Shown in pieces: positions 586 to 60,177 of a stretch of 64,000 bases of DNA; the stretch's first letter is position 1; every line of letters starts with the position of its first letter. The notes beneath the pieces are model-generated. The model was not told where the DNA came from. It ran no database searches and was given only the letters and a program-made list of their open reading frames with translations. The stretch is from Candidatus Foliamicus sp. (GTDB taxonomy: Bacteria > Pseudomonadota > Gammaproteobacteria > Steroidobacterales > Foliamicaceae): assembly GCA_965261845.1 (NCBI GenBank), contig OZ253475.1, positions 2,108,967 to 2,172,966 of the forward strand, in the 5' to 3' direction. The translations under genes and the position numbers were made by a program.

Positions 586-3500
586 TTGAACCGATTCCTA
601 TTCTTGGGTCGCGCGGCCGTTGTCCTCGCTGCTTGCGTCCTTTCTCTTGCCGGCTGTTCGGGTGGCGGGCTGGCCGGTGATCTCGTTACAGGCCGCGTCA
701 TCGGCGGAGCGGATGCGGCGAAAGTCCGAATTGACGCGGCTTTTACGAATGTTGAGTCCGAAGGCGGGAAAATCTCCGTGGAGGTCTCCAACGCCGGCGA
801 GGGCCAGATGAATTGGTCGGCTTCGTTAAACGCGAACTGGGCAAAGTTCGAAGGAGAATCGAAAGGCGATGGAACCGAAACGCTCACTGTAGCCTTCGAG
901 GCCAATACCGAGACCGAGGATCGCACCGTAACCCTGTCGATCAGTTCTCGGGAAGCATCCAACTCACCTCAAACCGTGGTCTTCACCCAGGCCGGAGTTG
1001 AACCGGAGCCTAAGCCGGTCTTGAATGCTTCAGCGGACAACTACGCTCTGGAGGCTGGCGGCGGCAGGATTGCCGTCACCTTGGCCAATGATGGCGGAGG
1101 GGAACTGGAATGGTCCGCTTCGCTTCCCTCTGACGCCTCGTGGGTGCGGTTTATCGGAAAAAGCTCCGGGCTAGGCCCCAGTAACATTCAGATAGAGGTG
1201 GATTCCAATTCCACCAAGGAACGGCGTTCGTTCGCGCTCACCGTGACTGCCGAAGGCGCAGAGCAGTCGCCCCAGACACTGCATTTCACCCAGGAACGCG
1301 GAGCGGAGACGGGGGAGGAGTCCATCGAAGTCTCCGCCGCCAGCTACGATGTCGGATCCGAGGAGGGCACTGTTGAAGTGACGGTGACTGCCGCCTCAGG
1401 CGTGCAATGGTCTGCGGCCATCGGCGGAAACGCCGATTGGATCCACTTCTCGGGACCATCCGGCGGAACCGGCAACGGCAGCATTACCCTCCGGATACAA
1501 AGCAATACAGCACAAGAATCCCGTTCGTTCGCGCTCACCCTGACCGCCGAAGGCGCGGAACAGTCGCCCCAGACACTGCATTTCACCCAGGAAGGCGGGG
1601 CGAAGCCGGGGGAGGAGTCCATCGAAGTCTCCGCCGCCAGCTACGATGTCGGATCCGAGGAGGGCACTGTTGAGGTGACGGTGACTGCCGCCTCAGGCGT
1701 GCAATGGTCTGCGGCCATCGGCGGAAACGCCGATTGGATCCACTTCTCGGGACCATCCGGCGGAACCGGCAACGGCAGCATTACCGTCCGGATACAAAGC
1801 AATACAGCACAAGAATCCCGTTCGTTCGCGCTGACCGTGACCGCCGAAGGAGACCGGAAGACCTCCAAAACGCTTAATTTCGTTCAGGGCGCCAGCGTGT
1901 CGGCGGTGATCGCCGTCACTGCCCATCCCGCAGACCGCTCGATCCCGCATTCAGGCGGCACGGTGCGATTGGATATAAGCAACAGCGGTGGAGGGCGACT
2001 GAATTGGACCGCTTCGACGAATGTCGGCTGGGCATCCGTCGCCGGAACAGCTTCTGGAACGGATAGAGGCAGCATCGTGATCTCTGTGCTGGAAAACTCA
2101 GGCGAGGCCCGCTCGTTCATGGTGACGGTCCAGTCCGCGGGAGCCGAAAACTCCCCCCGCACCGTGAGGTTTGCGCAGGCGGCGGCACCCGAGCAGCCCA
2201 GAGATTCGGCACGAATTCACGCCAACAAGTACGCGCTCACCCATTTGGGCGAAGCGGTAACTGTCAACATCGACGTCACGGCTGAGGCGCAACTGAACTG
2301 GACAGCAGAAATCCGTTACGCGGACTCCACCTATGTGGTTATCGCACCGGAGCGCGACAAGGATGGCGCTCTCACCGGACAATCCGTCGAAGAAACTCGG
2401 GACCGCGGAGAATGGGTGCGGATGCTTGGCGCCTCCAGCGGAACCGGTTCGGGATTGCTGGAGTTGCAAGTTGACGAGAACCCGGTCGCACTGCGCTGGA
2501 GCTTCAGCCTCTTTATTAAGTTTCCGGATGCCCCGGAACTCGATCAGACACTGCACTTCAGCCAGAATCGTGAAGCGGAACAGCACCTCACGATGTGGAC
2601 CGCAAGTCGCCACATCGGCGCCGGAGGTGAGAATGTGGATGTCCACCTAAGTGCTTCCAGCGGAGGACTCATTTACTGGGTGGCGGATGTGGATGTGGAT
2701 TGGGCGCACCTGGAAGGCGCGATCGACGGGGAAATCGACGGTAACGGCTCTACCGTAATTCGCATCCAGGTGGATGCCAACCCTGGCGATGAGCGTTCCT
2801 TCAGCTTCAGCGTAAACGCTACAGATGCAACGTCTCCACAACCGATTCTCTTCCGGCAGGCGATGGTGAAAGAAATGGAAGGAGGGGCCCCGATGCCGCC
2901 ACGCCCACCGGCCTGGTACGCCAATGACTGCCAGCAACAGACCCCCGGGTTCGAAGAATTCGGTGGCTGGCTTGCGCAGCGGGGACATTACCTCGACGTA
3001 ACTGATTCACGCGTGTGGCGGCATACGACCGATGGCCACGACTCCAACGGGGCGACCTTGCGCGCGTTCAACGACTGCACCGATGACAAACGCACGCTGA
3101 CCACCGATATCCTGGCCGACGCCATGCTCGACGAGCCGGCTGAATTCGCCGACTTGCCGCGGGGCGCCGACGCCCGGATCGTGCTGCTGGACATAAGCAC
3201 GCCGGTGGCAGGCGAGCACACGAACGGGGCCCGGCACGCGGATCCGCAGTATGTGTGGTCCGATGCCGGAAGCGGCTGGTATCCGACCTATACAAGGGAC
3301 GGCGACGGGCTGAAATTCCTCCACCTGCAGCCGTTGGGCGACTGGGGTTACGGAAGTTCCTCCGGATGGCGCTCACAACTGCGTGTATGGAACGCGGAAG
3401 GCTCCGATATGTCGGCCTGGTCGGATACCGCACAGGATTACGGTTGGCGACTGCCGAGCATCCAGGAGCGAACCGGCGAAGGTCTCAGGATGCTCGCCAA

Positions 3501-4650
3501 TGCCGACAGCTCACTGTGGCTACTGGTGGGCGGCTACACAGGAAACGGCAGCGGTCGCCGAATTCATCCGAATTCCGCCGTCTGCGGCGAAGCCAAGGAG
3601 CTGTGCCTGTTTGCTCCCTGGGAGTATCAATACACGGACGAGGAGGGGACAGCGCAGACTACTGCAGGAACGGCGGTCGCCGCCGCCCAGGTGGCCGCGG
3701 CGCTCGACAACGTGCTGCTGCTTTGGCCGGACTACGATTTGCTGGAGTTACGCGACCTGGTGCTCGGCTGCGCTGAAGATCTGGGCGAAGAGGGCCCTGA
3801 TGCGATGTGGGGGCGGGGCGTCTTGTCGTTCAACTGCCTGTTCACGGCCCAGGGCGAGTTGCGTGATCCGCGCACCGATGCCATCCTCTCGGGCGGAATC
3901 TACGGCCCCCTGGCGGGTTTGTACGGCGGGGCGCTGGACGCGCCGGTCATCGCCGGTGGCTCAATCCCGGGTTTGGATACCACCGGTCGAGACTTCGCCT
4001 ACCCGATGATGCGTTGGTCACACCGGGAGAACCACGCGCTCCTGGTTGCAACAGGCAACCTCGGCAGATCTCAGGCGGTTTATTTGCCGGATGGATTCAC
4101 ACGGACGCAAGGCCTCGGCACACCACTGTTCGCAAGGGGCGGCTTCACCGCCGGCTTCGCGGCGGCAGGCGATGCCCTCGGCGCTGCCGCGCAGTGGCGC
4201 ACCGGCGGGTTCTCAAAGGGGACGGGACTGTGGACTCTGCGCGGTGGTTTCGCCGTGCAACCCGAGGGCACAGGATCGTTGACCGGCGAGCGCGTGTTCC
4301 GCGCGCCCGTGACGTTTTCCAGCGCGATCTCGGTAGCGTTCCAACATAGCTTCACGCAGAAACTGTCCCTGCACATACAAGGCAATTACTGGATGACGCT
4401 AAACACCCAGCCACGCAGCCTTTGGGCGGGCGCGCAGTTATCGGAGTTGCGCGCGAGCGCGTCGCTGGCTTATCGATCAAGCCGTATAAGCGCGGAACTG
4501 CAAGCGCAATATCAGGGTGGCCTTAGCGGCCGGCTGGATGTCGCCGGACAGAAAATCCACCTGATGCCGCATACCGCTCGGCAGATGTCGTTGCGGGTGC
4601 GTATACCGCTGGGGAATCCACAAACACAACGGAGAAAAGAAATCCGATGA
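586..4650 (+). CDS. Large surface lipoprotein: about seven BACON/Ig-like repeats, subtilase (S8)-like domain with Ala in place of the catalytic Ser, putative C-terminal autotransporter-type beta-barrel
   Basis: TTG start at 586 with GGGAG at 571-575. Signal peptide ends in lipobox LSLAG|C. There are about seven 95-100 aa repeats sharing the pattern 'W.A.....W......SG.G......N....R.......S.Q...F.Q'. Residues around 'ELCLFAPWEY...TAGTAVAAAQVAAALDNVLLLWPDYDLLELRDLV...GPDAMWGRGVLS' resemble the C-terminal half of subtilisin-like peptidases, but GT-A replaces GT-S. The last ~270 aa are Gly/aromatic-rich and strand-like. Confidence 0.6.
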   Translation: MNRFLFLGRAAVVLAACVLSLAGCSGGGLAGDLVTGRVIGGADAAKVRIDAAFTNVESEGGKISVEVSNAGEGQMNWSASLNANWAKFEGESKGDGTETLTVAFEANTETEDRTVTLSISSREASNSPQTVVFTQAGVEPEPKPVLNASADNYALEAGGGRIAVTLANDGGGELEWSASLPSDASWVRFIGKSSGLGPSNIQIEVDSNSTKERRSFALTVTAEGAEQSPQTLHFTQERGAETGEESIEVSAASYDVGSEEGTVEVTVTAASGVQWSAAIGGNADWIHFSGPSGGTGNGSITLRIQSNTAQESRSFALTLTAEGAEQSPQTLHFTQEGGAKPGEESIEVSAASYDVGSEEGTVEVTVTAASGVQWSAAIGGNADWIHFSGPSGGTGNGSITVRIQSNTAQESRSFALTVTAEGDRKTSKTLNFVQGASVSAVIAVTAHPADRSIPHSGGTVRLDISNSGGGRLNWTASTNVGWASVAGTASGTDRGSIVISVLENSGEARSFMVTVQSAGAENSPRTVRFAQAAAPEQPRDSARIHANKYALTHLGEAVTVNIDVTAEAQLNWTAEIRYADSTYVVIAPERDKDGALTGQSVEETRDRGEWVRMLGASSGTGSGLLELQVDENPVALRWSFSLFIKFPDAPELDQTLHFSQNREAEQHLTMWTASRHIGAGGENVDVHLSASSGGLIYWVADVDVDWAHLEGAIDGEIDGNGSTVIRIQVDANPGDERSFSFSVNATDATSPQPILFRQAMVKEMEGGAPMPPRPPAWYANDCQQQTPGFEEFGGWLAQRGHYLDVTDSRVWRHTTDGHDSNGATLRAFNDCTDDKRTLTTDILADAMLDEPAEFADLPRGADARIVLLDISTPVAGEHTNGARHADPQYVWSDAGSGWYPTYTRDGDGLKFLHLQPLGDWGYGSSSGWRSQLRVWNAEGSDMSAWSDTAQDYGWRLPSIQERTGEGLRMLANADSSLWLLVGGYTGNGSGRRIHPNSAVCGEAKELCLFAPWEYQYTDEEGTAQTTAGTAVAAAQVAAALDNVLLLWPDYDLLELRDLVLGCAEDLGEEGPDAMWGRGVLSFNCLFTAQGELRDPRTDAILSGGIYGPLAGLYGGALDAPVIAGGSIPGLDTTGRDFAYPMMRWSHRENHALLVATGNLGRSQAVYLPDGFTRTQGLGTPLFARGGFTAGFAAAGDALGAAAQWRTGGFSKGTGLWTLRGGFAVQPEGTGSLTGERVFRAPVTFSSAISVAFQHSFTQKLSLHIQGNYWMTLNTQPRSLWAGAQLSELRASASLAYRSSRISAELQAQYQGGLSGRLDVAGQKIHLMPHTARQMSLRVRIPLGNPQTQRRKEIR
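1225..1850. repeat. 297-bp (99-codon) tandem duplication, about 2.1 copies, inside the 586..4650 CDS
   Basis: 'cgttcgttcgcgct' recurs at 1225, 1522 and 1819. 'gggggaggagtccatcgaagtc' recurs at 1311 and 1608. The two full units are nearly identical at nucleotide level and encode 'SIEVSAASYDVGSEEGTVEVTVTAASGVQWSAAIGGNADWIHFSGPSGGTGNGSIT.RIQSNTAQESRSFAL' twice. Confidence 0.9.
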
Positions 4651-4998
4651 ACAAACAATTTACACACTCATCTTCCATACCTGGAACTTTCATCCCGTCC
4701 GCCCAGGACTTGTTCAGGCCGGGCACAGAACATCGGTCCGCGTCAGGCATTTCGGCCTTCGGCTGCACCGCGGCTATCACCCCACGGGGGTCCTAGAGAT
4801 GTGGCGCTGCGCTCTATGGAACACTGGCGGGAATCTCGGTCGACGGGAGTTCCTCGTTGGGCCGGTGACCCGCTTTCCTGTCGCTGATCAGGCGTTCAAC
4901 TTCAGCGGCGCGGCGCGGCGGTATCGCCGCGGCTCTTCGTCCCTGCGACCAAACGACACGCGATCGCGTCCGGAACGATCGGTTTCCGGTTCTCAAGT

Positions 4999-5074
4999 CT
5001 AGTGTCGTGTCACGCCTGTATCGTCGCATCAGCGTGTCTCCCCTGGCCTGTGGCAAGGCGTGACACGACACTAG
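4999..5074. repeat. Perfect 18-bp inverted repeat with 40-nt spacer (ctagtgtcgtgtcacgcc ... ggcgtgacacgacactag)
   Basis: Arms read directly at 4999-5016 and 5057-5074. Intergenic, 63 nt upstream of the pilD start. Confidence 0.85.
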
Positions 5075-5136
5075 GTTCGGCGACACCCGCGAACTGGAAC
5101 TGACGAATTCCCCCAGCTCCGCCTCGCCCCGCAACA

Positions 5137-5952
5137 ATGAATTTCGTCGCACTGCCGCCCACCTTGGCTGGCGTTTTCGCCGCGATGTTCGGCCTGGCCT
5201 TCGGCAGTTTTGTCGGAATGTACGCCTACCGCCTGCCTCGCAACGAAAGCATCGTCAGAAAGCGATCCTTTTGTCCGGGTTGCGGTATCAGGATCCCAGC
5301 ATGGCGAAACATACCCCTGGTCAGTTATGCCCTTCAGAAAGGACGGTGCATCGCGTGCAAGGGTCCCATCCATTGGCGCTATCCGGTCAGCGAAGCACTC
5401 TGCGGCCTGCTCGCCTGGGCCTGCTGGCGCAAGTTCGGGATGGACTGGAGCCTGGCGGCGGGAACCGCGCTCTGCTGCGTTCTGGTACTGCTGTCGGTAA
5501 TCGATATGGAACGCCGGCTTCTTCCCGACCGCCTCACGCTTCCTCTGCTCTGGCTGGGCCTGCTTTTCAGCCTGACCCGGCCGGAGACACCGTTCGTGCC
5601 GCCCCCGCAAGCAATCATGGGCGCAGTCGCAGGTTACGGATTGCTGGCGATGACCGATTTCTTGTGGCGGCTCCTACGCAAGCGGTCGGCCTTCGGCGGA
5701 GGCGACCTCAAACTTCTGGCCGCGCTGGGCGCGTGGTTCGGCCCTTACGGAGCGTTCGGAGTCTTTGGCGCAGCAGCCGTAACGGGCGCGCTCTACGCTA
5801 CGCTGCGTGCACTGTCGAGGCGAACTGTCCCGCAGGAGGAGCTTCCGTTCGGTCCGTTCCTTATGCTCGCCGGCGTGTGGAATTTGCTCGCCCCGAATAC
5901 CTTGGACCCGTGGAGAACAGGTTTCCCGTTGGCGCAGGCATTGAGTTTGTGA
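5137..5952 (+). CDS. pilD: Prepilin peptidase / N-methyltransferase (peptidase A24)
   Basis: N-terminal Cys motif 'CPGCGIRIPAWRNIPLVSYALQKGRCIACKGPIHWRYPVSE', multiple transmembrane segments, and 'GGGDLKLLAALGAWFG' with the conserved Asp. Confidence 0.9.
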   Translation: MNFVALPPTLAGVFAAMFGLAFGSFVGMYAYRLPRNESIVRKRSFCPGCGIRIPAWRNIPLVSYALQKGRCIACKGPIHWRYPVSEALCGLLAWACWRKFGMDWSLAAGTALCCVLVLLSVIDMERRLLPDRLTLPLLWLGLLFSLTRPETPFVPPPQAIMGAVAGYGLLAMTDFLWRLLRKRSAFGGGDLKLLAALGAWFGPYGAFGVFGAAAVTGALYATLRALSRRTVPQEELPFGPFLMLAGVWNLLAPNTLDPWRTGFPLAQALSL

Positions 5953-6061
5953 GACAACGAAGAACCGTTGATTGCCCAGGAGCACATTGCTTCCATCCAG
6001 GCCTGCATTGCCAATCTGTACCCCAATCGAAGAACAAACATAGGGCCCAGGAAAATCGACC

Positions 6062-6940
6062 ATGAACAACCGCTACCTTAAGTCTCAGCGCATAAGCCTT
6101 GAGAAGAATACCCAGCTGGACAAGAGTTGGGTTAAGCAAAAAATTGCCGATGACCCTTCCATTCTGGAACTTGGCGATCTGGTTGTGAGAGACATCGACC
6201 GAACAAACACCCATGCCGGATGGCCGGACCTGCTGCTTCAGGATTCCGAGAAAGCGAGGAGATACGTAGTTCACCTGCAACTCGGCGCTTCCGATGAAAC
6301 TCAAATCGTTCGTGCGATCGAGTCCTACGATGCGCAAGAACAAAGTCTCCCACAATACGAATACCGCGCTGTTCTAATTGCCGAAAACATCGCAAGCCGG
6401 CACCTGAACGTTATCTCCCTGATCAACGGAACAGTCCCCTTCATCGCCATTCAGATGCAGACCTTTCAAGTTGGCGAATACATAACACTCCTGTTTTCGA
6501 AGGTGACTGGAAAACGCTTGCGGAGCTCGGTTGACGCGGATGAAGATGCCGAAACAACGCCCGCGGATCCAGCGTATTGGGAGACACATGCGTCCAAGGA
6601 AACCGTCGCCCTGGTAGATCAGATGTTGGAGTTGGTCCATGACATCGACCCGACCCTGAACCTGAAATACAATACATCGTTCATCGGTTTGGAAAGGGAT
6701 GGTCAGCCGGTAAATTTCGTCAAGTTCATACCTTGCAAGAGCCAGCTTGGCTTTGAAATAAGACTTCCCCTGACCGACGAATTGAGCACAAAGGTTGATA
6801 CGGCCGGACTCAGTACACTCGAGCATGGCCGGAAGGCGAGTTATTGCCGGCTGCGCTTGACCAGTCGCGACATCAAGTCCAGGGCTGATGTACTGAGGGA
6901 ATTGTCGAAACTCGCATATGAGCGCAATGCCGGTATTTAG
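6062..6940 (+). CDS. Hypothetical protein with degenerate NucS/PD-(D/E)xK-like N-terminal domain and DUF5655-like C-terminal region
   Basis: 'GWPDLLLQDSEKARRYVVHLQLGASDETQIVRAIESY' follows the 'GR.D+L..D..G..VV.ELK.G..D...+.Q...Y' layout of NucS-like nucleases, but has H and Q where E and K are expected. The gene sits in a visibly lower-GC segment. Confidence 0.5.
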   Translation: MNNRYLKSQRISLEKNTQLDKSWVKQKIADDPSILELGDLVVRDIDRTNTHAGWPDLLLQDSEKARRYVVHLQLGASDETQIVRAIESYDAQEQSLPQYEYRAVLIAENIASRHLNVISLINGTVPFIAIQMQTFQVGEYITLLFSKVTGKRLRSSVDADEDAETTPADPAYWETHASKETVALVDQMLELVHDIDPTLNLKYNTSFIGLERDGQPVNFVKFIPCKSQLGFEIRLPLTDELSTKVDTAGLSTLEHGRKASYCRLRLTSRDIKSRADVLRELSKLAYERNAGI

Positions 6941-7207
6941 AGCATCGGTCTGAATATGCATATGTCGGCGCATTGTCCTGGAAGCCTTCGGACTGAAATG
7001 ATGCTCTGCGTTTTGCGAGGATTGGCGGTTTCCACTGCACTGTTGGTGTCCGGCGACTCGCGCAGCATGCTGACTGTTGGGAAGAAACCCGCATAATACG
7101 CACCGCTGGCCTCGCGGGTAAACGACCTTGACCGAATATCTCCTTGCCCTGTCCTGCCCGGACCGGACAGGGTTGATCTACGCGCGTCTTCCGCTGACCC
7201 TTGGGGG

Positions 7208-7226
7208 CGAGGGCATCCTGCCCTCG
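7208..7226. repeat. REP-like half element (hairpin cgagggc-atcct-gccctcg)
   Basis: Sequence 'cgagggcatcctgccctcg' read at 7208-7226. Same core as the other REP-like copies. Confidence 0.6.
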
Positions 7227-7416
7227 TTACGGAAACGTTGTTCCGCAACAGGAGCGACCCGGTCTTGGGTGGAAAACAGGATGTCTTCGCTCCCAGGAAG
7301 CTTCATGCTGGAAAACTGCATTCGGCAGCGTGCCATCATTACCGGCGTTCCCGGCGATGAAACCGGGGGATTTCTTGCGCGATAATCAGCGCCACGAAAG
7401 ATAAGCGGAGCCAGAC

Positions 7417-7974
7417 GTGATGAAGACGGGAAAGGCAATTTTCCTTGCGGTGGCCATTGTGCTGCCGGTAACTGCCGGAGCAGATGACCTGCGTGACGAA
7501 ATGTTGCGTTGTGCACAGCTAAGGGGCCCGCAGGTGCGCCTGGCATGCTACGACGCACTCGCGGCCGTAAGCGCGTCTGGTGAGCGCAAAGCAATTTCCG
7601 ATGATGAATCCCCAACGGGTGAAGGGCTTTCCCGCACCCCTGAACCTGCGCCCGTGACGTCCGCGGCGCCTTCGGGGAGTGGCGGAGAAAAACCGGAATC
7701 GGATCGATCGCTGACTGAGCGCTTCTTCGGCATGCTTCCCGGCGGTGGCGACGTCAACAAGATCGAGTCCCGGGTCGTCGGCGAAGTAAAGAACTTGCGG
7801 GGCGGCACGCGGTTCACGCTGGAAAACGGCCAGGTCTGGCAGCAGACTGAAAAGACCAACCGCAACTACCGAGCCACCAATCCCAAGGTGGAGATCAAGG
7901 AAGGGTTCATGAACAGCTACCGGATGCGCCTGGAAGGGCTCAATGCGCGCATCCGCGTGCGCCGCGTGAAATAA
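7417..7974 (+). CDS. Hypothetical secreted protein
   Basis: GTG 7417 / ATG 7420 start after 'aagcggag'. Signal peptide 'MMKTGKAIFLAVAIVLPVTAGA'. No family recognised. Confidence 0.55.
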   Translation: MMKTGKAIFLAVAIVLPVTAGADDLRDEMLRCAQLRGPQVRLACYDALAAVSASGERKAISDDESPTGEGLSRTPEPAPVTSAAPSGSGGEKPESDRSLTERFFGMLPGGGDVNKIESRVVGEVKNLRGGTRFTLENGQVWQQTEKTNRNYRATNPKVEIKEGFMNSYRMRLEGLNARIRVRRVK

Positions 7975-7976
7975 CG

Positions 7977-8381
7977 CTAGCTCAGCCGGGTCAGCATCGC
8001 CTGGTGTTCGGCATAGGCGGCGTCCAGGCGCCGCCGCGCCTCGCCGGCGGACGGAAAACCCGCCTCCAGCCCGGCCAGCATGATCACCGCTTCCATCTCG
8101 TCGCGGGTGATGCCGTGGTAGATGCCGGCGCGTACAAAGTAGCCCACGTCGTGACGGGCGGCCGTGATTATGCCGATGGCGCACAGGATCATGGTCTTCA
8201 GATCGACGACCTCCTGGTCCCACACTTCCGGGGCGATCCGGGTCATCAATTGCCGGTTGAAGTCGTTCTGTTCGAGTTGCTCGCATAATTCAGCGCCGTA
8301 ATCCGGGCCGAAGATGCGCAGAAACATGGACTGCCCGCGGTGCAATTCCGCTTCTGTGAAGGGCTTGTAGGCTTTGCTCAT
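7977..8381 (-). CDS. Carboxymuconolactone decarboxylase (CMD/AhpD-like) family protein
   Basis: ~134 aa, with '...DLKTMILCAIGIITAARHDVGYFVRAGIYHGITRDEMEAVIMLAGLEAGFPSA', typical of the CMD fold. Paralog of 13249..13638. Confidence 0.75.
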   Translation of the reverse strand: MSKAYKPFTEAELHRGQSMFLRIFGPDYGAELCEQLEQNDFNRQLMTRIAPEVWDQEVVDLKTMILCAIGIITAARHDVGYFVRAGIYHGITRDEMEAVIMLAGLEAGFPSAGEARRRLDAAYAEHQAMLTRLS

Positions 8382-17936: not shown

Positions 17937-17973
17937 ACGCCCATGGTCGCATTCCTATGGCCCGAACGACGCA

Positions 17974-18002
17974 GGGAACGAGGGCATCCTGCCCTCGACG
18001 GG
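17974..18002. repeat. REP-like element, single hairpin copy
   Basis: 'gggaacgagggcatcctgccctcgacggg', read directly. Intergenic. Confidence 0.75.
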
Positions 18003-18860: not shown

Positions 18861-18891
18861 GCCCTCCCGTGAGCGAGGGCATCCTGCCCCC
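18861..18891. repeat. REP-like element, degenerate copy
   Basis: 'gccctcccgtgagcgagggcatcctgccccc' shares the gagggcatcctgccc core. Confidence 0.55.
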
Positions 18892-18953
18892 TGCATGAAC
18901 CAATGCTGGGAATATTCACAGCGACCGTGCCGCGCTGACGCGCAAGGAACAAG

Positions 18954-18984
18954 CTGGGAGCGAGGGAAGCCCTCGCTCCCAGGG
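18954..18984. repeat. REP-like variant hairpin (ctgggagcgaggg-aag-ccctcgctcccag)
   Basis: 13-bp perfect stem read directly. It shares the outer CTGGGA.CGAGGG arm with the family. Confidence 0.7.
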
Positions 18985-24466: not shown

Positions 24467-24540
24467 GGAAACGAGGGCGTCCCTGGGAACGAGGGCGTCT
24501 CGCCCTCGTCGAGGGCAGGATGCCCTCGTTCCCAGGGGGG
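24467..24540. repeat. REP-like element, 1.5 copies
   Basis: 'ggaaacgagggcgtccctgggaacgagggcgtctcgccctcgtcgagggcaggatgccctcgttcccaggggg', between the convergent TBDR and prfB. Confidence 0.85.
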
Positions 24541-25701: not shown

Positions 25702-25832
25702 CTGGGAACGAGCCCCCCCTGGGAACGAGCCCCCCCTGGGAACGAGGGCGTCCCGCCCTCGACGAGGGCGGGACGCCCTCGTTCCTATCATTTGGCTACC
25801 GGCGAGGGCAGGATGCCCTCGTTCCCAGGGGG
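25702..25832. repeat. Composite REP-like array: two 17-bp truncated units, one near-full palindrome, one half unit
   Basis: 'ctgggaacgagcccccc' occurs twice (25702-25735). Next comes 'ctgggaacgagggcgtcccgccctcgacgagggcgggacgccctcgttcc' (25736-25785), then 'ggcgagggcaggatgccctcgttcccaggggg' (25801-25832). Confidence 0.85.
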
Positions 25833-35323: not shown

Positions 35324-35376
35324 CTGGGAACGAGGGCGTCCCGCCCTCGTCGAGGGCGGGACGCCCTCGTTCCCAG
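35324..35376. repeat. REP-like element, perfect 53-bp palindrome (reference copy)
   Basis: ctgggaacgagggcgtcccgccctcg-t-cgagggcgggacgccctcgttcccag. The two 26-nt halves are exact reverse complements. Located between pyrG and tilS. Confidence 0.95.
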
Positions 35377-37318: not shown

Positions 37319-37511
37319 TTGTTCCTCCTTAACGATTCTGCGCATTGTGCCTGACCCTGGAGCCTCCTTGAACAGATCAAAGCATCACCGGCAGTTGTGA
37401 AATACCCCTACCGCTCTTCCTCCGCGGGCGAGGTGACTTTCGGCCCTGCTCCCTGCTTTCAGGCCATGAGTTTTCGCAGCAGGCGCCGCTGCGTTGGCGC
37501 GCAGGGAACAC

Positions 37512-37565
37512 CTTGGGAGCGAGGGCATCTTGCCCTCGTCGAGGGCGGGACGCCCTCGTTCCCAG
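37512..37565. repeat. REP-like element, near-full copy
   Basis: 'cttgggagcgagggcatcttgccctcgtcgagggcgggacgccctcgttcccag'. Confidence 0.9.
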
Positions 37566-37603
37566 AGTTGTTCCATGCAAGCATGCCGCACGGGGTGCAA
37601 GGT

Positions 37604-41641: not shown

Positions 41642-43591
41642 CTGAAGTTCCCCTCGATTTAACCGTCCGGATTGATTTAAGTGATTGACTCGGTGGGGAA
41701 TAGTGTGTTCGAGTGCCGCGCATGTATTCCCATGTATAGTGATCTGATAGTATTGCAGTGTAGAGATTCATGAACTATCATCGTTCCCATGTATATCGAA
41801 AAGGTCCCCAACCGCAAATCGCCTCCCGCTATTCTCTTGCGCGAGGGCTGGCGCGAAAACGGCAAAGTCAAGAAACGCACCTTGGCCAACCTCACCAAGT
41901 GGCCCCCGCAGAAAATCGATGCCCTGCGGCGGGTGCTGAGGAACGAGCCCCTGGTAGGGCGCGAGGAGGCCTTCGACATCGTGCGCTCCAAACCCCACGG
42001 TCATGTCGCCGCCGTGCTCGGCACGTTGCGCAAGCTGCGAGTGGAGCGCGCGATCGCCGGTGCGGACTCGCCCGAGCGCCGACGCGTGCTGGCGATGATC
42101 GTCGCCCGAATCCTGGACCCCGGCTCGAAACTGGCCACCGCCCGGGGCTTGGCCGAGGCGACCGCGCGCGACTCGCTCGCCGAGACGCTGGCACTTGGGG
42201 AGATCGACGAGGACGACCTCTACGCCGCCATGGACTGGCTCATCGAGCGCCAGCACGCCATCGAGCGGCGCTTGGCCAAGCGCCATCTCAAGGACGGCGC
42301 CCTGGTGTTCTACGACCTGACGTCGGTCCACATGGAAGGGCGCCGCTGCCCGCTGGCCAAGCGCGGGTATTCCCGCGACGGGCGGCGCGGCAAGGTGCAG
42401 ATCGAGTTCGGGCTGTTGTGCGACGCCGAGGGCCGGCCGGTGGCGGTGAAGGTGTTCGCCGGCAACACCGCGGATCCGGCCACCGTGGGCGCGCAGGTCG
42501 ACAAGCTCAGGCACCGCTTCGGGTTCTCCAGGGTGGTGTTGGTGGGCGACCGCGGGATGTTGACCGAGGCGCGCATTCGCGAGGACGTGAAGCCGGCGGG
42601 GCTGGACTGGATTAGCGCGTTGCGGGGTCCGGCGGTGCGCTCGCTGGTGGAATCCGGCGCCGTGCAGCTCTCGCTGTTTGATGAGACCGACCTGGTGGAG
42701 ATCCGAAGCGATACCTATCCGGGCGAGCGCCTCATGGTGTGCCGCAATCCGCTGCTGGCCGAGGCGCGGGCGCGCAAGCGAGACGAACTGCTCCAAGCCA
42801 CCGAGGCGTTGCTCGATCCCATCGTCGCGGCCACGCGGCGCGACAAGTGGCGCCTGAAGGGTGCGGACAAGATCGGCGTGCGGGTGGGCAAGGTCGTCGG
42901 CCAATACAAGATGGCCAAGCACTTCGATCTGGATATCCAGGACGACGCGTTCGGCTATCGGCGAAAGCCTGAGTCCATCGCCGCCGAGGCGGTGCTGGAC
43001 GGCTTGTACGTCGTGCGCACCAGCCTGGCGAAGACGCAACTCGACGCCGAGGGCGCCGTGCGCGCCTACAAGCGCCTGAGCGCGGTCGAGCGCGCCTTCC
43101 GAAGCCTCAAGACCGTGGACCTGAAGGTTCGACCGGTCTTCCACCACGCCGCGAACCGGGTGCGCGCGCACGTGTTTCTGTGCATGCTGGCCTACTACGT
43201 GGAATGGCACCTGCGCGAGCGGCTCAAGCCGCTGCTGTTCGACGACGACGATCCGGCCGCCGCCGAGGCGGCGCGCGCGTCCGTCGTGGCGCCTGCGAAG
43301 GTCTCCGAAGCGGCCAGGGAAAAAGCCCGCAGCAAACGCACCGCGAACGGTCTGCCGGTGCACAGCTTCCGCACCCTGCTCGGCGACCTGGCGACGATCG
43401 CCAAGAACCGCGTCGTCCCCCAAGTGCCCGGCGCCGAGCCGTTCGAGGTCCTCACCCGGCCCACCGCGCTACAGCGCGAAGCCTTCAAACTGCTCGGCGT
43501 GCGGCTCGAACGTTCCCAGTAGCGACACACCGTATCTCTCGATTTGTCCCGAAAATCAACGAGTTCAATGCGGCACACTCTGGAAGTTCAG
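41642..43591 (+). mobile_element. IS1634-family (IS4 superfamily) insertion sequence, boundaries approximate
   Basis: Contains the 577-aa transposase. The candidate imperfect terminal repeat is ctgaagttcc (41642-41651) against ggaagttcag (43582-43591). The flanks are lower in GC. No direct repeats could be confirmed. Confidence 0.55.
41789..43522 (+). CDS. IS1634-family transposase
   Basis: The N-terminus 'MYIEKVPNRKSPPAILLREGWRENGKVKKRTLANLTKWPPQKIDALRRVL' is characteristic of IS1634-type transposases. DDE-region features 'VFYDLTSVHMEG', 'VVLVGDRGM' and 'AYKRLSAVERAFRSLK' are present. Confidence 0.85.
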   Translation: MYIEKVPNRKSPPAILLREGWRENGKVKKRTLANLTKWPPQKIDALRRVLRNEPLVGREEAFDIVRSKPHGHVAAVLGTLRKLRVERAIAGADSPERRRVLAMIVARILDPGSKLATARGLAEATARDSLAETLALGEIDEDDLYAAMDWLIERQHAIERRLAKRHLKDGALVFYDLTSVHMEGRRCPLAKRGYSRDGRRGKVQIEFGLLCDAEGRPVAVKVFAGNTADPATVGAQVDKLRHRFGFSRVVLVGDRGMLTEARIREDVKPAGLDWISALRGPAVRSLVESGAVQLSLFDETDLVEIRSDTYPGERLMVCRNPLLAEARARKRDELLQATEALLDPIVAATRRDKWRLKGADKIGVRVGKVVGQYKMAKHFDLDIQDDAFGYRRKPESIAAEAVLDGLYVVRTSLAKTQLDAEGAVRAYKRLSAVERAFRSLKTVDLKVRPVFHHAANRVRAHVFLCMLAYYVEWHLRERLKPLLFDDDDPAAAEAARASVVAPAKVSEAAREKARSKRTANGLPVHSFRTLLGDLATIAKNRVVPQVPGAEPFEVLTRPTALQREAFKLLGVRLERSQ

Positions 43592-43717
43592 CTTAAGGCA
43601 CGCGGGTCCGTGCACAAGGCATGGATAAGTCTGCTGCTCAAGTAGATCATTGGCAGCGACAGCGATGAGTGTGCTACTTGAAACGCCAGACTATATCACG
43701 CGGTCTTGGAGCCTCTC

Positions 43718-55285: not shown

Positions 55286-55390
55286 TTGGAGCGAGCGCAT
55301 TCCCCTGGCATCCTGCCCTCGACGGGTGCATCCCCTGGGAACGAGGGCATCCTGCCCTCGACGAGGGCGAGACGCCCTCGTTCCCAGGGG
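55286..55390. repeat. REP-like element, about two copies
   Basis: 'tttggagcgagcgcattcccctggcatcctgccctcgacgggtgcatcccctgggaacgagggcatcctgccctcgacgagggcgagacgccctcgttcccagggg', between cdsA and rseP. Confidence 0.85.
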
Positions 55391-58265: not shown

Positions 58266-59134
58266 CGATGCTCCCGCAACTGGGCTTCGACCTCGTCGGC
58301 AAGATCGCTGCTGGGACGTTCCACGCCCTCGCCCACTTCAAAGCGCACAAATCCATGCACCCGCGCCTTGTTGGTCTTGAGCAGCGCACCTACCTTGAGC
58401 TTGCTGTCCCGCACGTAAATCTGCCCGCTTAAGCAGATGCCGTCGAGAAATTTCCGTAAGCGGCCTTCCACCATGCGCGCCAGGATTTCCGGCGGCTTAC
58501 CGGAGTCGGCCGCCTGATCAGTAAGAAAAGTGCGTTCACGCTCCACGACTTCGGCCGGGACATTGTCGGGAGAGACATGCTGCGGGCGCATCGCCGCAAC
58601 ATGCATGGCAACATTCTTGCCCAACTCGAGGTCGCCACCCTCCATGTCCACCACCACGCCAATCCGTTCGTTGTGGACGTATACGGACGCACCACCCTGT
58701 GGCTGCATGCGCTCAAAACGGCGCACGCTGATGTTCTCGCCGATCCGCGCTACCGCTTCCTGGCGGGTCTGCTCCAGGGACTGTCCGTCCACTTGCAGCG
58801 CCAGCAGGGCATCAAGGTCCTCAGGGGCCTTGTCCAGCACGGTTCGGGCCACGGAAGCCGCGAATTCACGAAAGTCCCGGCGCCGGGCCACGAAATCGGT
58901 TTCGCAATTTACCTCGGCGATGGCCACCGCACCTGAATCTTCAGCCACCGCAATCACTCCTTCTGCGGCAGCCCGGGCGGCCTTCTTTTCGGCCGCCACC
59001 GCGCCCATCTTGCGCAGCAGGTCGCGCGCGGCCTCCGCATCGCCGTTGGTCTCGGTCAAGGCGCGTTTGCAATCCATCATCCCCGCGCCGGTCGATTCCC
59101 GCAGGGCCTTTACCTGGGCGGCGGTAATTGCCAT
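58262..59134 (-). CDS. tsf: Translation elongation factor Ts
   Basis: '[32 protein letters not shown]'. Confidence 0.95.
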
Positions 59135-60177
59135 GGCCTAGTCCGTTTTCTCAGCCGGAGCCGGAGCTTCCTCGGCAGCGGGTGGGGCGGCAGGAGCATC
59201 GGCGGCTTCCACCGAAGGGGCCTTGGACGCTGCCGGCGGGGCGGCAGGAGCATCGGCGGCTTCCACCGAAGGGGCCTTGGACGCTGCCGGCGGGGCGGCT
59301 TCGGCTTGGCAGGCCTGGCGTCCCGGTCCTCACGCTCGCGCGCCACCGCGGCCGTGCGCCGCGGCATGCGCCGCGTTACGCCTCGCAAGCGCGCCGGCGC
59401 CTTGGCCCGTGACCGCGGACGATCCGATTTGGCAATCGGCTTGCCGGATTCGTCCAGCTCCACGAATTCGTCGTCGCCCAGGGAAATCTCGGGCACCTCG
59501 TCGCGTCCCTTCATGATTGCGTCGGCGATACCGCGCGCATACAGCTCGGCGGCGCGAATGGCGTCATCGTTGCCGGGAATCATATAGTCCACGTCCTGGG
59601 GCGAACAGTTGGTGTCCACCACGGCGGCCACCGGAATGCCGAGCTTCTTGGCCTCGTTCAAGGCGATATGCTCGTGCTCCAGATCGATGATGAACACCGC
59701 ATCGGGTAGCGAGTCCATGGCGCGGATTCCGCCGAGGGAGCGCTTCAGCTTTGCCAGCTCGCGCTTGAGTCCCAGCGCTTCCTTCTTGGTGAACCTCTCG
59801 CGCAAGGTCCCTTCTTCGAGGGCTTCCAGCTCTTCCAGCCGCTTGATGGACTTCTTGATGGTCTTGAGATTGGTAAGCGTGCCGCCAAGCCAGCGATGAC
59901 TGACATACGGCATGCCGCAGCGTGTGGCCTCGTTGCGTATGGCATGTTGCGCGGCCCGCTTGGTACCCACGAACAGCACAGTGCCGCGCTGGGCCGCCAC
60001 TGATTGTACGAATTCACAGGTCTTCTTGTAGAGCGGAACGGTCTGCTCAAGGTCGATGATGTGGAGCTGGTTGCGTTCGCCATAGATAAACGGCGCCATT
60101 TTCGGGTTCCAGTGCCTGGCCCGATGCCCGAAGTGCACGCCCGCATTCAACATTTCATGTACGGTGATTTCCGCCAA
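59110..60177 (-). CDS. rpsB: 30S ribosomal protein S2 with unusual ~110-aa basic C-terminal extension (3' end uncertain)
   Basis: '[33 protein letters not shown]', '[10 protein letters not shown]', '[33 protein letters not shown]'. The conserved body ends near '[16 protein letters not shown]'. The open frame runs on to 59110 and overlaps tsf by 25 nt. Confidence 0.88.
59187..59294. repeat. Exact 54-bp tandem duplication (2 copies) in the rpsB 3' tail
   Basis: 'gcggcaggagcatcggcggcttccaccgaaggggccttggacgctgccggcgggg' at 59187-59240 is repeated at 59241-59294. Confidence 0.92.

Follow-up and report, generated by a model that had tools for sequence, protein, structure and literature searches.

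What is the long palindrome that lies between tilS and pyrG in a 64-kb stretch of Candidatus Foliamicus DNA (hereafter the window, meaning the whole stretch analysed), and what accounts for the similar structures scattered around it? An earlier note, made from the sequence alone, described the copy at 35324-35376 as a perfect 53-nt palindrome (26 nt, T, 26 nt), which it is, and read it as a member of a family of repetitive extragenic palindromes (REPs). The tests proposed there, as far as they were run, all favoured this reading. The flagged palindromes are genomic repeats and neither regulatory RNAs nor a new system. Our analysis indicates that they very probably constitute a population of REPs and of REP doublets forming hairpins (REPINs) of Candidatus Foliamicus, maintained by one chromosomal gene for a REP-associated tyrosine transposase (RAYT) of the HUH/Y1 type. 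This is a real and ordinary REP/REPIN-RAYT system, undescribed in detail as a family but not a new kind of element.

Repeats in the Window and in Related Genomes

The unit used for searching was CTGGGAAC-GAGGGC-RTCYY-GCCCTC-G, also written CTGGGAACGAGGGC-RTCYY-GCCCTCG (26 nt). With up to 5 substitutions allowed, the window contains 15 units at 9 intergenic loci and none elsewhere, and 20 shuffles of it yielded no match. A degenerate pattern for the full 53-bp doublet (up to 3 mismatches) found five copies, starting at 24483, 25736, 35324, 37513 and 55335, against zero in 100 shuffles. The core GAGGGC-N5-GCCCTC was observed 14 times, the expectation being 0.47. The loops in the window are GTCCC, GTCTC, ATCCT and ATCTT with their complements, and the swap between gtccc/gggac and atcct/aggat on constant GAGGGC/GCCCTC stems turned out to be just as the earlier note had claimed.

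The window is 99.9% identical over 7.7 kb to the ENA contig ctg819866_23x_l (ERZ25071132, 1.1 Mb), and its pyrG protein has residue-for-residue matches on metagenome contigs. Three stretches compared with the Candidatus Foliamicus metagenome-assembled genome (MAG) OZ242252.1 gave 94.6-97.9% identity. Further copies had been expected outside the window, and there are many, in the same genome as well as in sister genomes. A genome scan with the pattern GGGAACGAGGGC-N5-GCCCTCG, one genome per species, matched at least 97 stretches; among the matches listed, most are on three MAGs of chromosome level (OZ242252.1, OZ250178.1 and OZ252226.1), all belonging to Candidatus Foliamicus, a genus of Gammaproteobacteria with an order of its own. 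At least 196 units occur in 32 sampled 8-kb blocks of OZ242252.1 and about 100 in the sampled loci of OZ252226. The unit had no match in the viral contigs searched. Rfam reported no family at gathering score in the whole window, and a permissive scan of 24.4-25.9 kb returned nothing but generic hairpins far below threshold, such as miRNA precursors.

Anatomy of the Unit and of the Doublet

The unit consists of an 8-nt foot, CTGGGAAC, a 6-7-bp G+C stem, GAGGGC, and a 5-nt loop, RTCYY, 26 nt in total. Its anatomy was examined in roughly 445 units collected from Foliamicus loci and the window by a relaxed core search. The direction of the loop (xTCyy vs. rrGAx) and the side of the GGGAAC foot are concordant in 299 of 300 classifiable units, which shows the unit to be asymmetric. 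Most often two units face each other head to head, their 17-nt cores 3 nt apart: 84 of 100 forward-reverse neighbours lie at an offset of exactly 20 nt, which makes a 53-bp doublet, while reverse-forward pairs are rare (12). Tandem arrays have a period of 26-29 nt. Doublets mostly pair two loop subtypes, ATCYT with TTCCA in 30 of 51 cases in OZ242252 and GTCCC with GTCTC in four of seven in OZ250178. Sequence diversity is high, with 84 of 91 doublets distinct, and since only two of the 91 are perfect palindromes, the flagged copy is unusual in its own family.

Both of the alternative folds put forward by the earlier note were recovered. The perfect copy folds as a single 25-bp hairpin (-36.4 kcal/mol, z -11.5), whereas copies with mixed loops form two 7-8-bp hairpins with an outer stem; a singlet reaches -9.7 kcal/mol (z -4.7). 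Within Foliamicus the stem co-varies weakly, broken pairs being more numerous than compensated ones.

The RAYT Partner Gene

When the loci collected were searched for motifs, a protein of the HUH/Y1 type turned up in OZ252226.1 as well as in a MAG of the Thermodesulfobacteriota, flanked by the repeats in both. The IS200/IS605-like RAYT gene with flanking repeats that the earlier note proposed to look for exists on the contig matching the window at 99.9%. There, at locus L107 of ctg819866_23x_l and about 300 kb from pyrG, lies an intact RAYT of 246 residues (P0121), with a sodium:neurotransmitter symporter (SNF) gene on one side and an RND efflux operon on the other. It is preceded by 4-5 forward units (GGGAAC-GAGGGC-GTCCC-GCCCTC) and followed by about 9 reverse units. 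This is the defining arrangement of a REPtron, as described by Nunvar 2010 (PMC2817692), Bertels and Rainey 2011 (PMC3116915) and Quentin 2018 (PMC6006769). A REP-flanked RAYT next to the SNF gene is also present in OZ250178, OZ242252, OZ252226 and four further assemblies, eight assemblies in all, with one locus seen per genome in a non-exhaustive search of the genomes.

The RAYT proteins score 91-100 bits against the NCBIfam model NF047646, "REP-associated tyrosine transposase" (cut-off 80), and 16-24 bits only against the NCBIfam IS200 model (cut-off 55). They match Pfam Y1_Tnp and align with E. coli TnpA-REP (PDB 4ER8; E 3.5e-9), the HUH and Y..NP motifs being in register. Their own motifs are NHVH and YIH[HQE]NP, with PNHVH in all nine aligned proteins. 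An N-terminal extension of 60-100 residues contains HRTYLPHFEAGEVPQHICFRLADSLP. On our reading of the 4ER8 alignment, W, Q and R stand at the guide-contact positions listed in PMC6006769. One of these positions is Q95 of the E. coli protein, a guide-contact residue (PMC6006769). The residue aligned with it (FW[QR]PDY) is Q in RAYTs that accompany REPs with GTCCC/GTCTC loops and R or H in those that accompany TTCCA/ATCCT loops, which may reflect co-variation between protein and DNA.

Some features of the gene itself should also be recorded. The start of the RAYT reading frame (MNNPEV/MKDTEI) is conserved at L107 3001-3075, L110 3001-3330 (OZ242252.1) and L102 2501-2560, and conserved TATGATCT and AAGGA motifs lie upstream of it. 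One or more REP units are inserted in frame, with the peptide WERGRPAL, between the start and the catalytic core, and in OZ242252 six doublets bring the RAYT open reading frame (ORF) to a length of 320 aa. Expression of the gene could be influenced by a REP hairpin in the 5′ portion of its own message. In OZ252226.1 the RAYT (L008 5526-6140) has an in-frame TAA (..RHLLK*WEEEL..), and it is either a pseudogene or the product of a sequencing error.

Turnover between Strains

Comparison of related strains shows that the sites are polymorphic. L117, a relative whose PyrG is 92% identical, is empty at the tilS-pyrG, prfB-TonB and accA-DUF1838 sites, and its flanks align well. Two filled-vs.-empty comparisons with L117 revealed no target duplication; the empty tilS-pyrG site was resolved by pairwise alignment with longer flanks, as MAFFT misaligned it. 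L116, a 96% relative, and OZ242252 do carry units at those sites, but their loop subtypes differ or their arms are swapped. The accA-DUF1838 site has ATCTT + GTCCC in the window, ATCCT + TTCCA in OZ242252.1, a single hairpin in L116 and none in L117. The accA-adjacent doublet of OZ242252 is absent from the window.

The loop subtype follows the RAYT allele. RAYTs of the P0145 type (OZ242252, OZ252226) are flanked by TTCCA and ATCCT units, and the same loops dominate in both genomes, while the P0121 and P0002 types are flanked by GTCCC and GTCTC units. Correspondingly, the window has five GTCCC loops, two GTCTC and no intact TTCCA, as against 79 TTCCA loops in 196 units of OZ242252. Between the window's strain (L107) and OZ242252.1 (L110), DNA identity is 94.6% in the SNF gene, 83.9% in the RND genes and 75.6% in the RAYT. 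Because the RAYT is so much more divergent than the adjacent SNF gene, the RAYT allele and the REP subtype have apparently been exchanged; the data hint that the region is a hot spot of divergence or that the allele was replaced.

Strain differences in the window are not confined to the repeats. Relative to OZ242252.1, positions 41642-43690 are a 2-kb insertion with a 577-aa ORF (41789-43522, forward strand) whose product has a transposase domain, DDE_Tnp_1 (IS4-family); the insertion appears to be a strain-specific insertion sequence (IS).

The Copies in the Window and Their Placement

The copies found in the window are as follows.

7201-7226, forward strand: REP singlet, loop ATCCT, degenerate foot TTGGGGGC; the interval 7208-7226 of the earlier note is its core
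Roughly 7275-7297, about 50 nt downstream: decayed reverse partner of the 7201 unit
17972-17997, forward strand: REP singlet, loop ATCCT, 36 nt past the stop of the ureidoglycolate-lyase-like gene; conserved in OZ242252.1
18867-18892, forward strand: degenerate REP unit; it is the left arm of a doublet found whole in OZ242252.1 and split here by about 60 nt
18954-18984, no strand: collapsed "double-foot" hairpin, CTGGGAGCGAGGG-AAG-CCCTCGCTCCCAG, with a remnant right arm that has a TGGAA loop
24467-24482, then 24483-24535, no strand: partial unit followed by a 53-bp doublet, loops GTCTC + ATCCT, between the convergent TonB-receptor and prfB genes
25702-25735, forward strand: two tandem partial units of 17 nt each, CTGGGAACGAGCCCCCC
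25736-25788, no strand: 53-bp doublet, loops GTCCC + GTCCC, right foot mutated
25803-25828, reverse strand: REP singlet, loop ATCCT, 4-8 nt past the DUF498 stop
35324-35376, no strand: the flagged perfect 53-bp doublet, loops GTCCC + GTCCC, 14 nt past the tilS stop and 62 nt before the pyrG start
37513-37565, no strand: 53-bp doublet, loops ATCTT + GTCCC, between accA and the DUF1838 gene
55286-55334, forward strand: degenerate or partial forward units upstream of the 55335 doublet
55335-55387, no strand: 53-bp doublet, loops ATCCT + GTCTC, between the cdsA stop and the rseP start

All nine loci of the original list were recovered, with boundaries or nature amended at 7208-7226, 18861-18891 and 18954-18984; the latter two are rearranged halves of one doublet that is intact in OZ242252.1. 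The 53-mers at 24483 and 55335, 31 kb apart, are identical and in opposite orientation.

Every copy in the window is intergenic, as had been asserted, because the neighbouring ORFs carry Pfam domains or a clear coding signature (pyrG, tilS, accA, DUF1838, prfB, TonB-dependent receptor, DUF498, rseP, cdsA, ureidoglycolate-lyase-like, cupin and M24 peptidase). Most copies lie 4-40 nt 3′ of a stop codon. The stretch around the 7201 locus has no convincing ORF. As is typical of REPs, the intergenic contexts are tandem in 91 cases, convergent in 52 and divergent in only 14. Singlets between co-directional genes have the forward unit in the transcript in 34 cases vs. 15 (p = 0.009, with crude gene calls based on the G+C content of third codon positions).

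Copies are seldom inside coding regions. The relaxed core search, which tolerates up to 2 mismatches, yields chance matches inside genes, for example at 43049 and 63362 of the window, and the raw figure of 94 of 445 units "inside ORFs" is therefore an overestimate. A few genuine in-frame intragenic units exist in relatives (L031 7141-7203 in OZ242252.1, with two units, and L098 4836-4872) and none in the window; they add peptides such as PGNEGILPSNP. Judging by its sequence motifs, the L031 ORF looks valS-like.

The possibility that the hairpins are intrinsic (Rho-independent) terminators was considered and ruled out by the absence of T-runs after them: a scan of 24-38 kb found a T-rich tail behind one REP only, on the strand opposite to the genes. 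An effect of such stable hairpins in 3′ untranslated regions at the level of the host is possible.

Several neighbouring features are noted here for completeness. A second, outer inverted repeat (GCGCAGGGAACA ... TGTTCCCTGCGC) encloses some REPs, at 37488-37512 with 37566-37580 and at 18929-18953 of the window and at 7690-7745 of L116. It might be an older hairpin or a decayed REP foot that received a unit, and perhaps reflects a target preference. The part of the window that contains the 7201 REP (6000-8000) has a GC content of 0.557 vs. about 0.63, and its ORFs have weak coding signatures and no Pfam match. Two tandem 297-nt copies, 94% identical (1206-1799), within a 1354-aa ORF (586-4650), represent a recently duplicated 99-residue module. 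Another two tandem copies, of 54 nt and also 94% identical (59175-59282), lie within the ORF 59110-60177 on the reverse strand.

Comparison with Known Systems

In full-text searches of the literature, no relevant paper came up under Foliamicus, under the strings of REP core and foot, or under CTGGGAGC combined with RAYT. No REP in Table S1 of Quentin 2018 matches, and none listed there contains CTGGGA. The consensus, which the earlier note did not recognise as a named one, was thus found neither in Rfam nor in that table nor in the full-text searches. On the features tested, the Foliamicus repeats and their transposase have what a REPtron has: a hairpin unit, dispersed extragenic copies, inverted pairing, a REP-flanked RAYT and the RAYT protein signature.

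The likeness to the REPs, or bacterial interspersed mosaic elements (BIMEs), of E. coli and their TnpA-REP (YafM; PDB 4ER8) is close. In both cases short extragenic palindromes with an unpaired 5′ foot lie downstream of genes, inverted pairs are built from two REP subtypes (Y and Z in E. coli), and an HUH/Y1 gene, apparently low-copy in Foliamicus, is flanked by REPs. However, the Foliamicus foot is CTGGGAAC instead of GTAG, the 6-7-bp stem pairs perfectly and has no bulge, and the loop is conserved. The Foliamicus RAYT has NHVH where subclass 2.2 has DHLH, and it is extended at the N-terminus. Pseudomonas REPINs with their Group 3 RAYTs (PMC3116915, PMC2817692) are similar in that inverted doublets are the main unit, the REP type is specific to the RAYT and the populations are diverse; the P. 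putida REP TGTGGGAGCGGGC... even resembles the Foliamicus foot plus stem. Here too there are differences: 4 nt separate CTGG from the stem, the arms are 3 nt apart only, one RAYT locus is seen per genome vs. several, and NHVH replaces DH[LF]H.

The foot, cCTGGGA[AG]C, begins with C in 213 of 243 Foliamicus units (G in 5) and in 163 of 174 metagenome units (G in 2). It is therefore not GTGG, and the units fall outside the canonical REPs that have a 5′ GT[AG]G tag at or near the hairpin foot (PMC3733652; subclasses 2.2, 2.4, 2.5, 2.7 and 2.8 of PMC6006769). CGTC-tagged REPs (PMC3733652) share the small size, the intergenic position and the mostly head-to-head dimers, but their 8-9-bp stem starts with A-T pairs, they end in CGTC, and no transposase is associated with them. 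In Foliamicus the stem reads GAGGGC, singlets show no conserved CGTC at their end, and there is a RAYT; CGTC arises by accident only, at some doublet centres (CG-T-CG). Nor do the arrays have the marks of a CRISPR, as their tandem period is 17-29 nt without unique spacers and no cas gene was present among the ORFs examined.

REPIN association has been stated for two RAYT groups only, 2 and 3 (bioRxiv 10.1101/2022.05.22.493013; PMC5581495), whose HUH motifs are DHLH (subclass 2.2 = Group 2) and DH[LF]H (subclass 2.5 = Group 3; PMC6006769 Table 1). The nine aligned RAYT proteins with PNHVH have neither motif, a statement that concerns motifs and not phylogeny. The same comparison would place the signature NHVH / WQ / YIH[HQE]NP nearest to subclass 2.6, or to 2.1 in the case of P0008 (YIHLNP), an assignment that is not settled; subclass 2.1 has a C-terminal helix-turn-helix domain, which is absent from these proteins. 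In the atypical non-GTAG hairpins of TnpA-Y1 subclass 2.6/class 3 (PMC6006769) and in the "TIRYT" families of terminal inverted repeats (TIRs; PMC3733652), RAYT-like genes are likewise flanked by repeated structures without GT[AG]G. Such structures can be abundant in a genome (PMC6006769, PMC3733652). The "TIRYT" TIR consensus, GGGGWSAS, does not fit the Foliamicus unit. Since atypical non-GTAG REPs beside RAYT-like genes are already known, the Foliamicus repeats are a new family within a known kind. Lastly, IS200/IS605 elements (IS608, ISDra2) belong to the same Y1 HUH transposase family and cause no target duplication. Their recognition of subterminal hairpins in single-stranded DNA counts as a further likeness, which the Foliamicus RAYT presumably shares. 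Unlike them, the Foliamicus RAYT gene appears to keep to a single chromosomal site, conserved across the genus, and to have undergone no multiplication of its own; only the hairpins are dispersed.

The Same Foot and Loop beyond the Genus

On the Thermodesulfobacteriota chromosome OZ220710.1 (L048 4032-4804), a 53-bp doublet and a reverse unit accompany a RAYT that shares 66% identity with the one in OZ252226, so that the same REP unit is found in another phylum. This REPtron lies in frame within a 1227-aa DUF1156/D12 DNA methylase ORF (2697-6380). The RAYT appears to have moved together with its REPs. The sample that yielded OZ250178 also gave a circular contig of 5.6 Mb, on which a RAYT is flanked by GAGGGC-ATCCT-GCCCTC with a different foot. 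The insertion into a methylase gene was considered as a recurrent arrangement, as suggested by JGI "Putative DNA methylase" names, and rejected: the sole example checked, P0015 (L118), adjoins Wadjet-like genes and no methylase, and the label on many on RAYT homologues is treated as an annotation artefact.

A scan of JGI metagenomes with the RAYT alignment gave 80 contigs encoding relatives (43-62% identity). Their flanking hairpins have the same foot, CTGGGAGC, the same loops and at least 13 complementary stem variants. Anchored on the foot alone, C[TC]GGGA[GA]C, the search produced 302 matches in 63 of the 80 loci. A perfect 6-bp stem with a 5-nt loop directly follows the foot in 142 of these 302, as compared to 0 of 47 for a control foot. 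The stems vary by locus yet remain complementary (GCGGGC, GCCGGC, GCGGCC, GCAGGC, GAGGGC, GCACGC and others), whereas the loops are of the types GTCCC, ATCCT, GTCTC, ATCTT and TTCCA, as in the window and its relatives. With one unit per locus, the covariation score is 0.266 vs. 0.141 for shuffled data, and 0 of 500 shuffles reached it; the +1 register also scores high because some units have 6-nt loops. Footed hairpins are present in 52 of the 80 loci, forward upstream and reverse downstream in 31 of the 53 that have both flanks. Stem co-variation is thus clear only across RAYT lineages. The earlier description of the family as lineage-specific holds for the exact 26-nt unit, and does not extend to the foot and loop, which are common to REPs around related RAYTs on the Thermodesulfobacteriota chromosome and on numerous unrelated metagenome contigs.

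These data raise a broader possibility, to which we give somewhat less than even weight. The repeats may be one branch of an uncatalogued third "tagged" REP superfamily, beside GT[AG]G and CGTC, with the foot CTGGGA[GA]C, a conserved 5-nt loop (RTCYY or TTCCA) and a freely co-varying 6-bp stem. Its RAYT clade would lie outside the two REPIN-associated groups. The foot and the loop, and not the stem, would be the recognition elements; the system would cross phyla as a unit, and loop subtypes would be rewritten when the RAYT allele is replaced.

Proposed Mode of Maintenance and Rival Explanations

By analogy with E. coli TnpA-REP (PMC3479197) and with IS200/IS605, the unit would fold when the DNA is single-stranded, and the RAYT would recognise both hairpin and foot, and probably the loop too. 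The enzyme would then cut and rejoin the strand, and in this way units or doublets could be excised, inserted without target duplication or tandemly duplicated. Cutting and rejoining of this sort would yield tandem partial units beginning at CTGGGAAC, such as those at 25702-25735, and arrays around the RAYT gene. Mobilisation by the RAYT is what we infer from these resemblances.

Several points weigh against maintenance by the RAYT. The foot is not GT[AG]G, and therefore the details of the E. coli mechanism may not transfer. Because non-doublet units have no orientation bias relative to local GC skew (25:34 and 27:35, p = 1.0), there is no sign of lagging-strand targeting. The diversity of the doublets implies slow or ancient replication, and the differing subtypes at one site could have arisen via gene conversion or template switching instead of transposition. 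OZ252226 retains many REPs despite the in-frame TAA in its RAYT. Finally, the window itself contains no RAYT, and the link to one rests on the contig of 99.9% identity; that the window is that contig is not proven. The high diversity of copies and the one putative RAYT pseudogene allow for an activity that is low, or extinct in some lineages.

A fossil population would account for part of this. It would have been spread by the RAYT in the past and would no longer be mobilised; strains would differ via deletion, point mutation, template switching in palindromes and recombination, and the RAYT would now have another host function. The absence of a dominant master copy among the doublets, 84 of 91 being distinct, agrees with it, as do the many decayed or split units, the lack of replication-strand bias and the roughly 100 units that OZ252226 still holds beside its interrupted RAYT. 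We nevertheless regard a fossil as unlikely, since the window's strain and most relatives have an intact RAYT whose upstream TATGATCT/AAGGA signal is conserved, and two doublets of the window lying 31 kb apart are identical 53-mers. Moreover, genomes with about 95-98% identity over the stretches compared differ wholesale in loop subtype, in step with the RAYT allele, and decay alone is insufficient to explain this. The stability of the hairpins, their position from a few to about 40 nt past stop codons, their strong depletion in divergent intergenic regions and the orientation bias of singlets in tandem contexts could instead suggest structural signals selected by the host (mRNA 3′-end stabilisers, terminators or protein-binding sites) that spread independently, their association with the RAYT being incidental. 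No T-run stands behind the hairpins, however, and it is the sequence, not merely the structure, that is conserved within a genome, broken pairs exceeding compensated ones. Units flank the RAYT in every lineage examined, the REP type shifts with the RAYT type, and related strains lack the element at the same sites, all of which makes host-selected signals very improbable. The doublets also superficially resemble paired terminal inverted repeats, and the IS4-family transposase gene of the window (41789-43522) is absent from OZ242252, which might point to a miniature inverted-repeat transposable element derived from a DDE-type insertion sequence such as this IS4-like element. Yet the two filled-vs.-empty sites have no target-site duplication, the repeats have no internal sequence, the ends of the IS region are dissimilar to the unit, and the units flank the Y1 gene and not the DDE gene; such an origin has next to no probability.

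Significance

Work on REP/REPIN-RAYT systems has so far dealt almost entirely with Enterobacteria, Pseudomonas, Stenotrophomonas and Neisseria. Foliamicus, a genus known without cultivation, adds a clean and abundant REPIN-like population whose foot is different and whose RAYT has motifs outside the two REPIN-associated groups. Dozens of environmental contigs show this foot-and-loop design again, around relatives of the RAYT. The repeats account for many intergenic palindromes in these MAGs, as well as for oddities of assembly and annotation such as ORFs extended through REP arrays. In addition, the natural series of stems under a constant foot and loop offers a direct hypothesis for the recognition elements of this RAYT clade.

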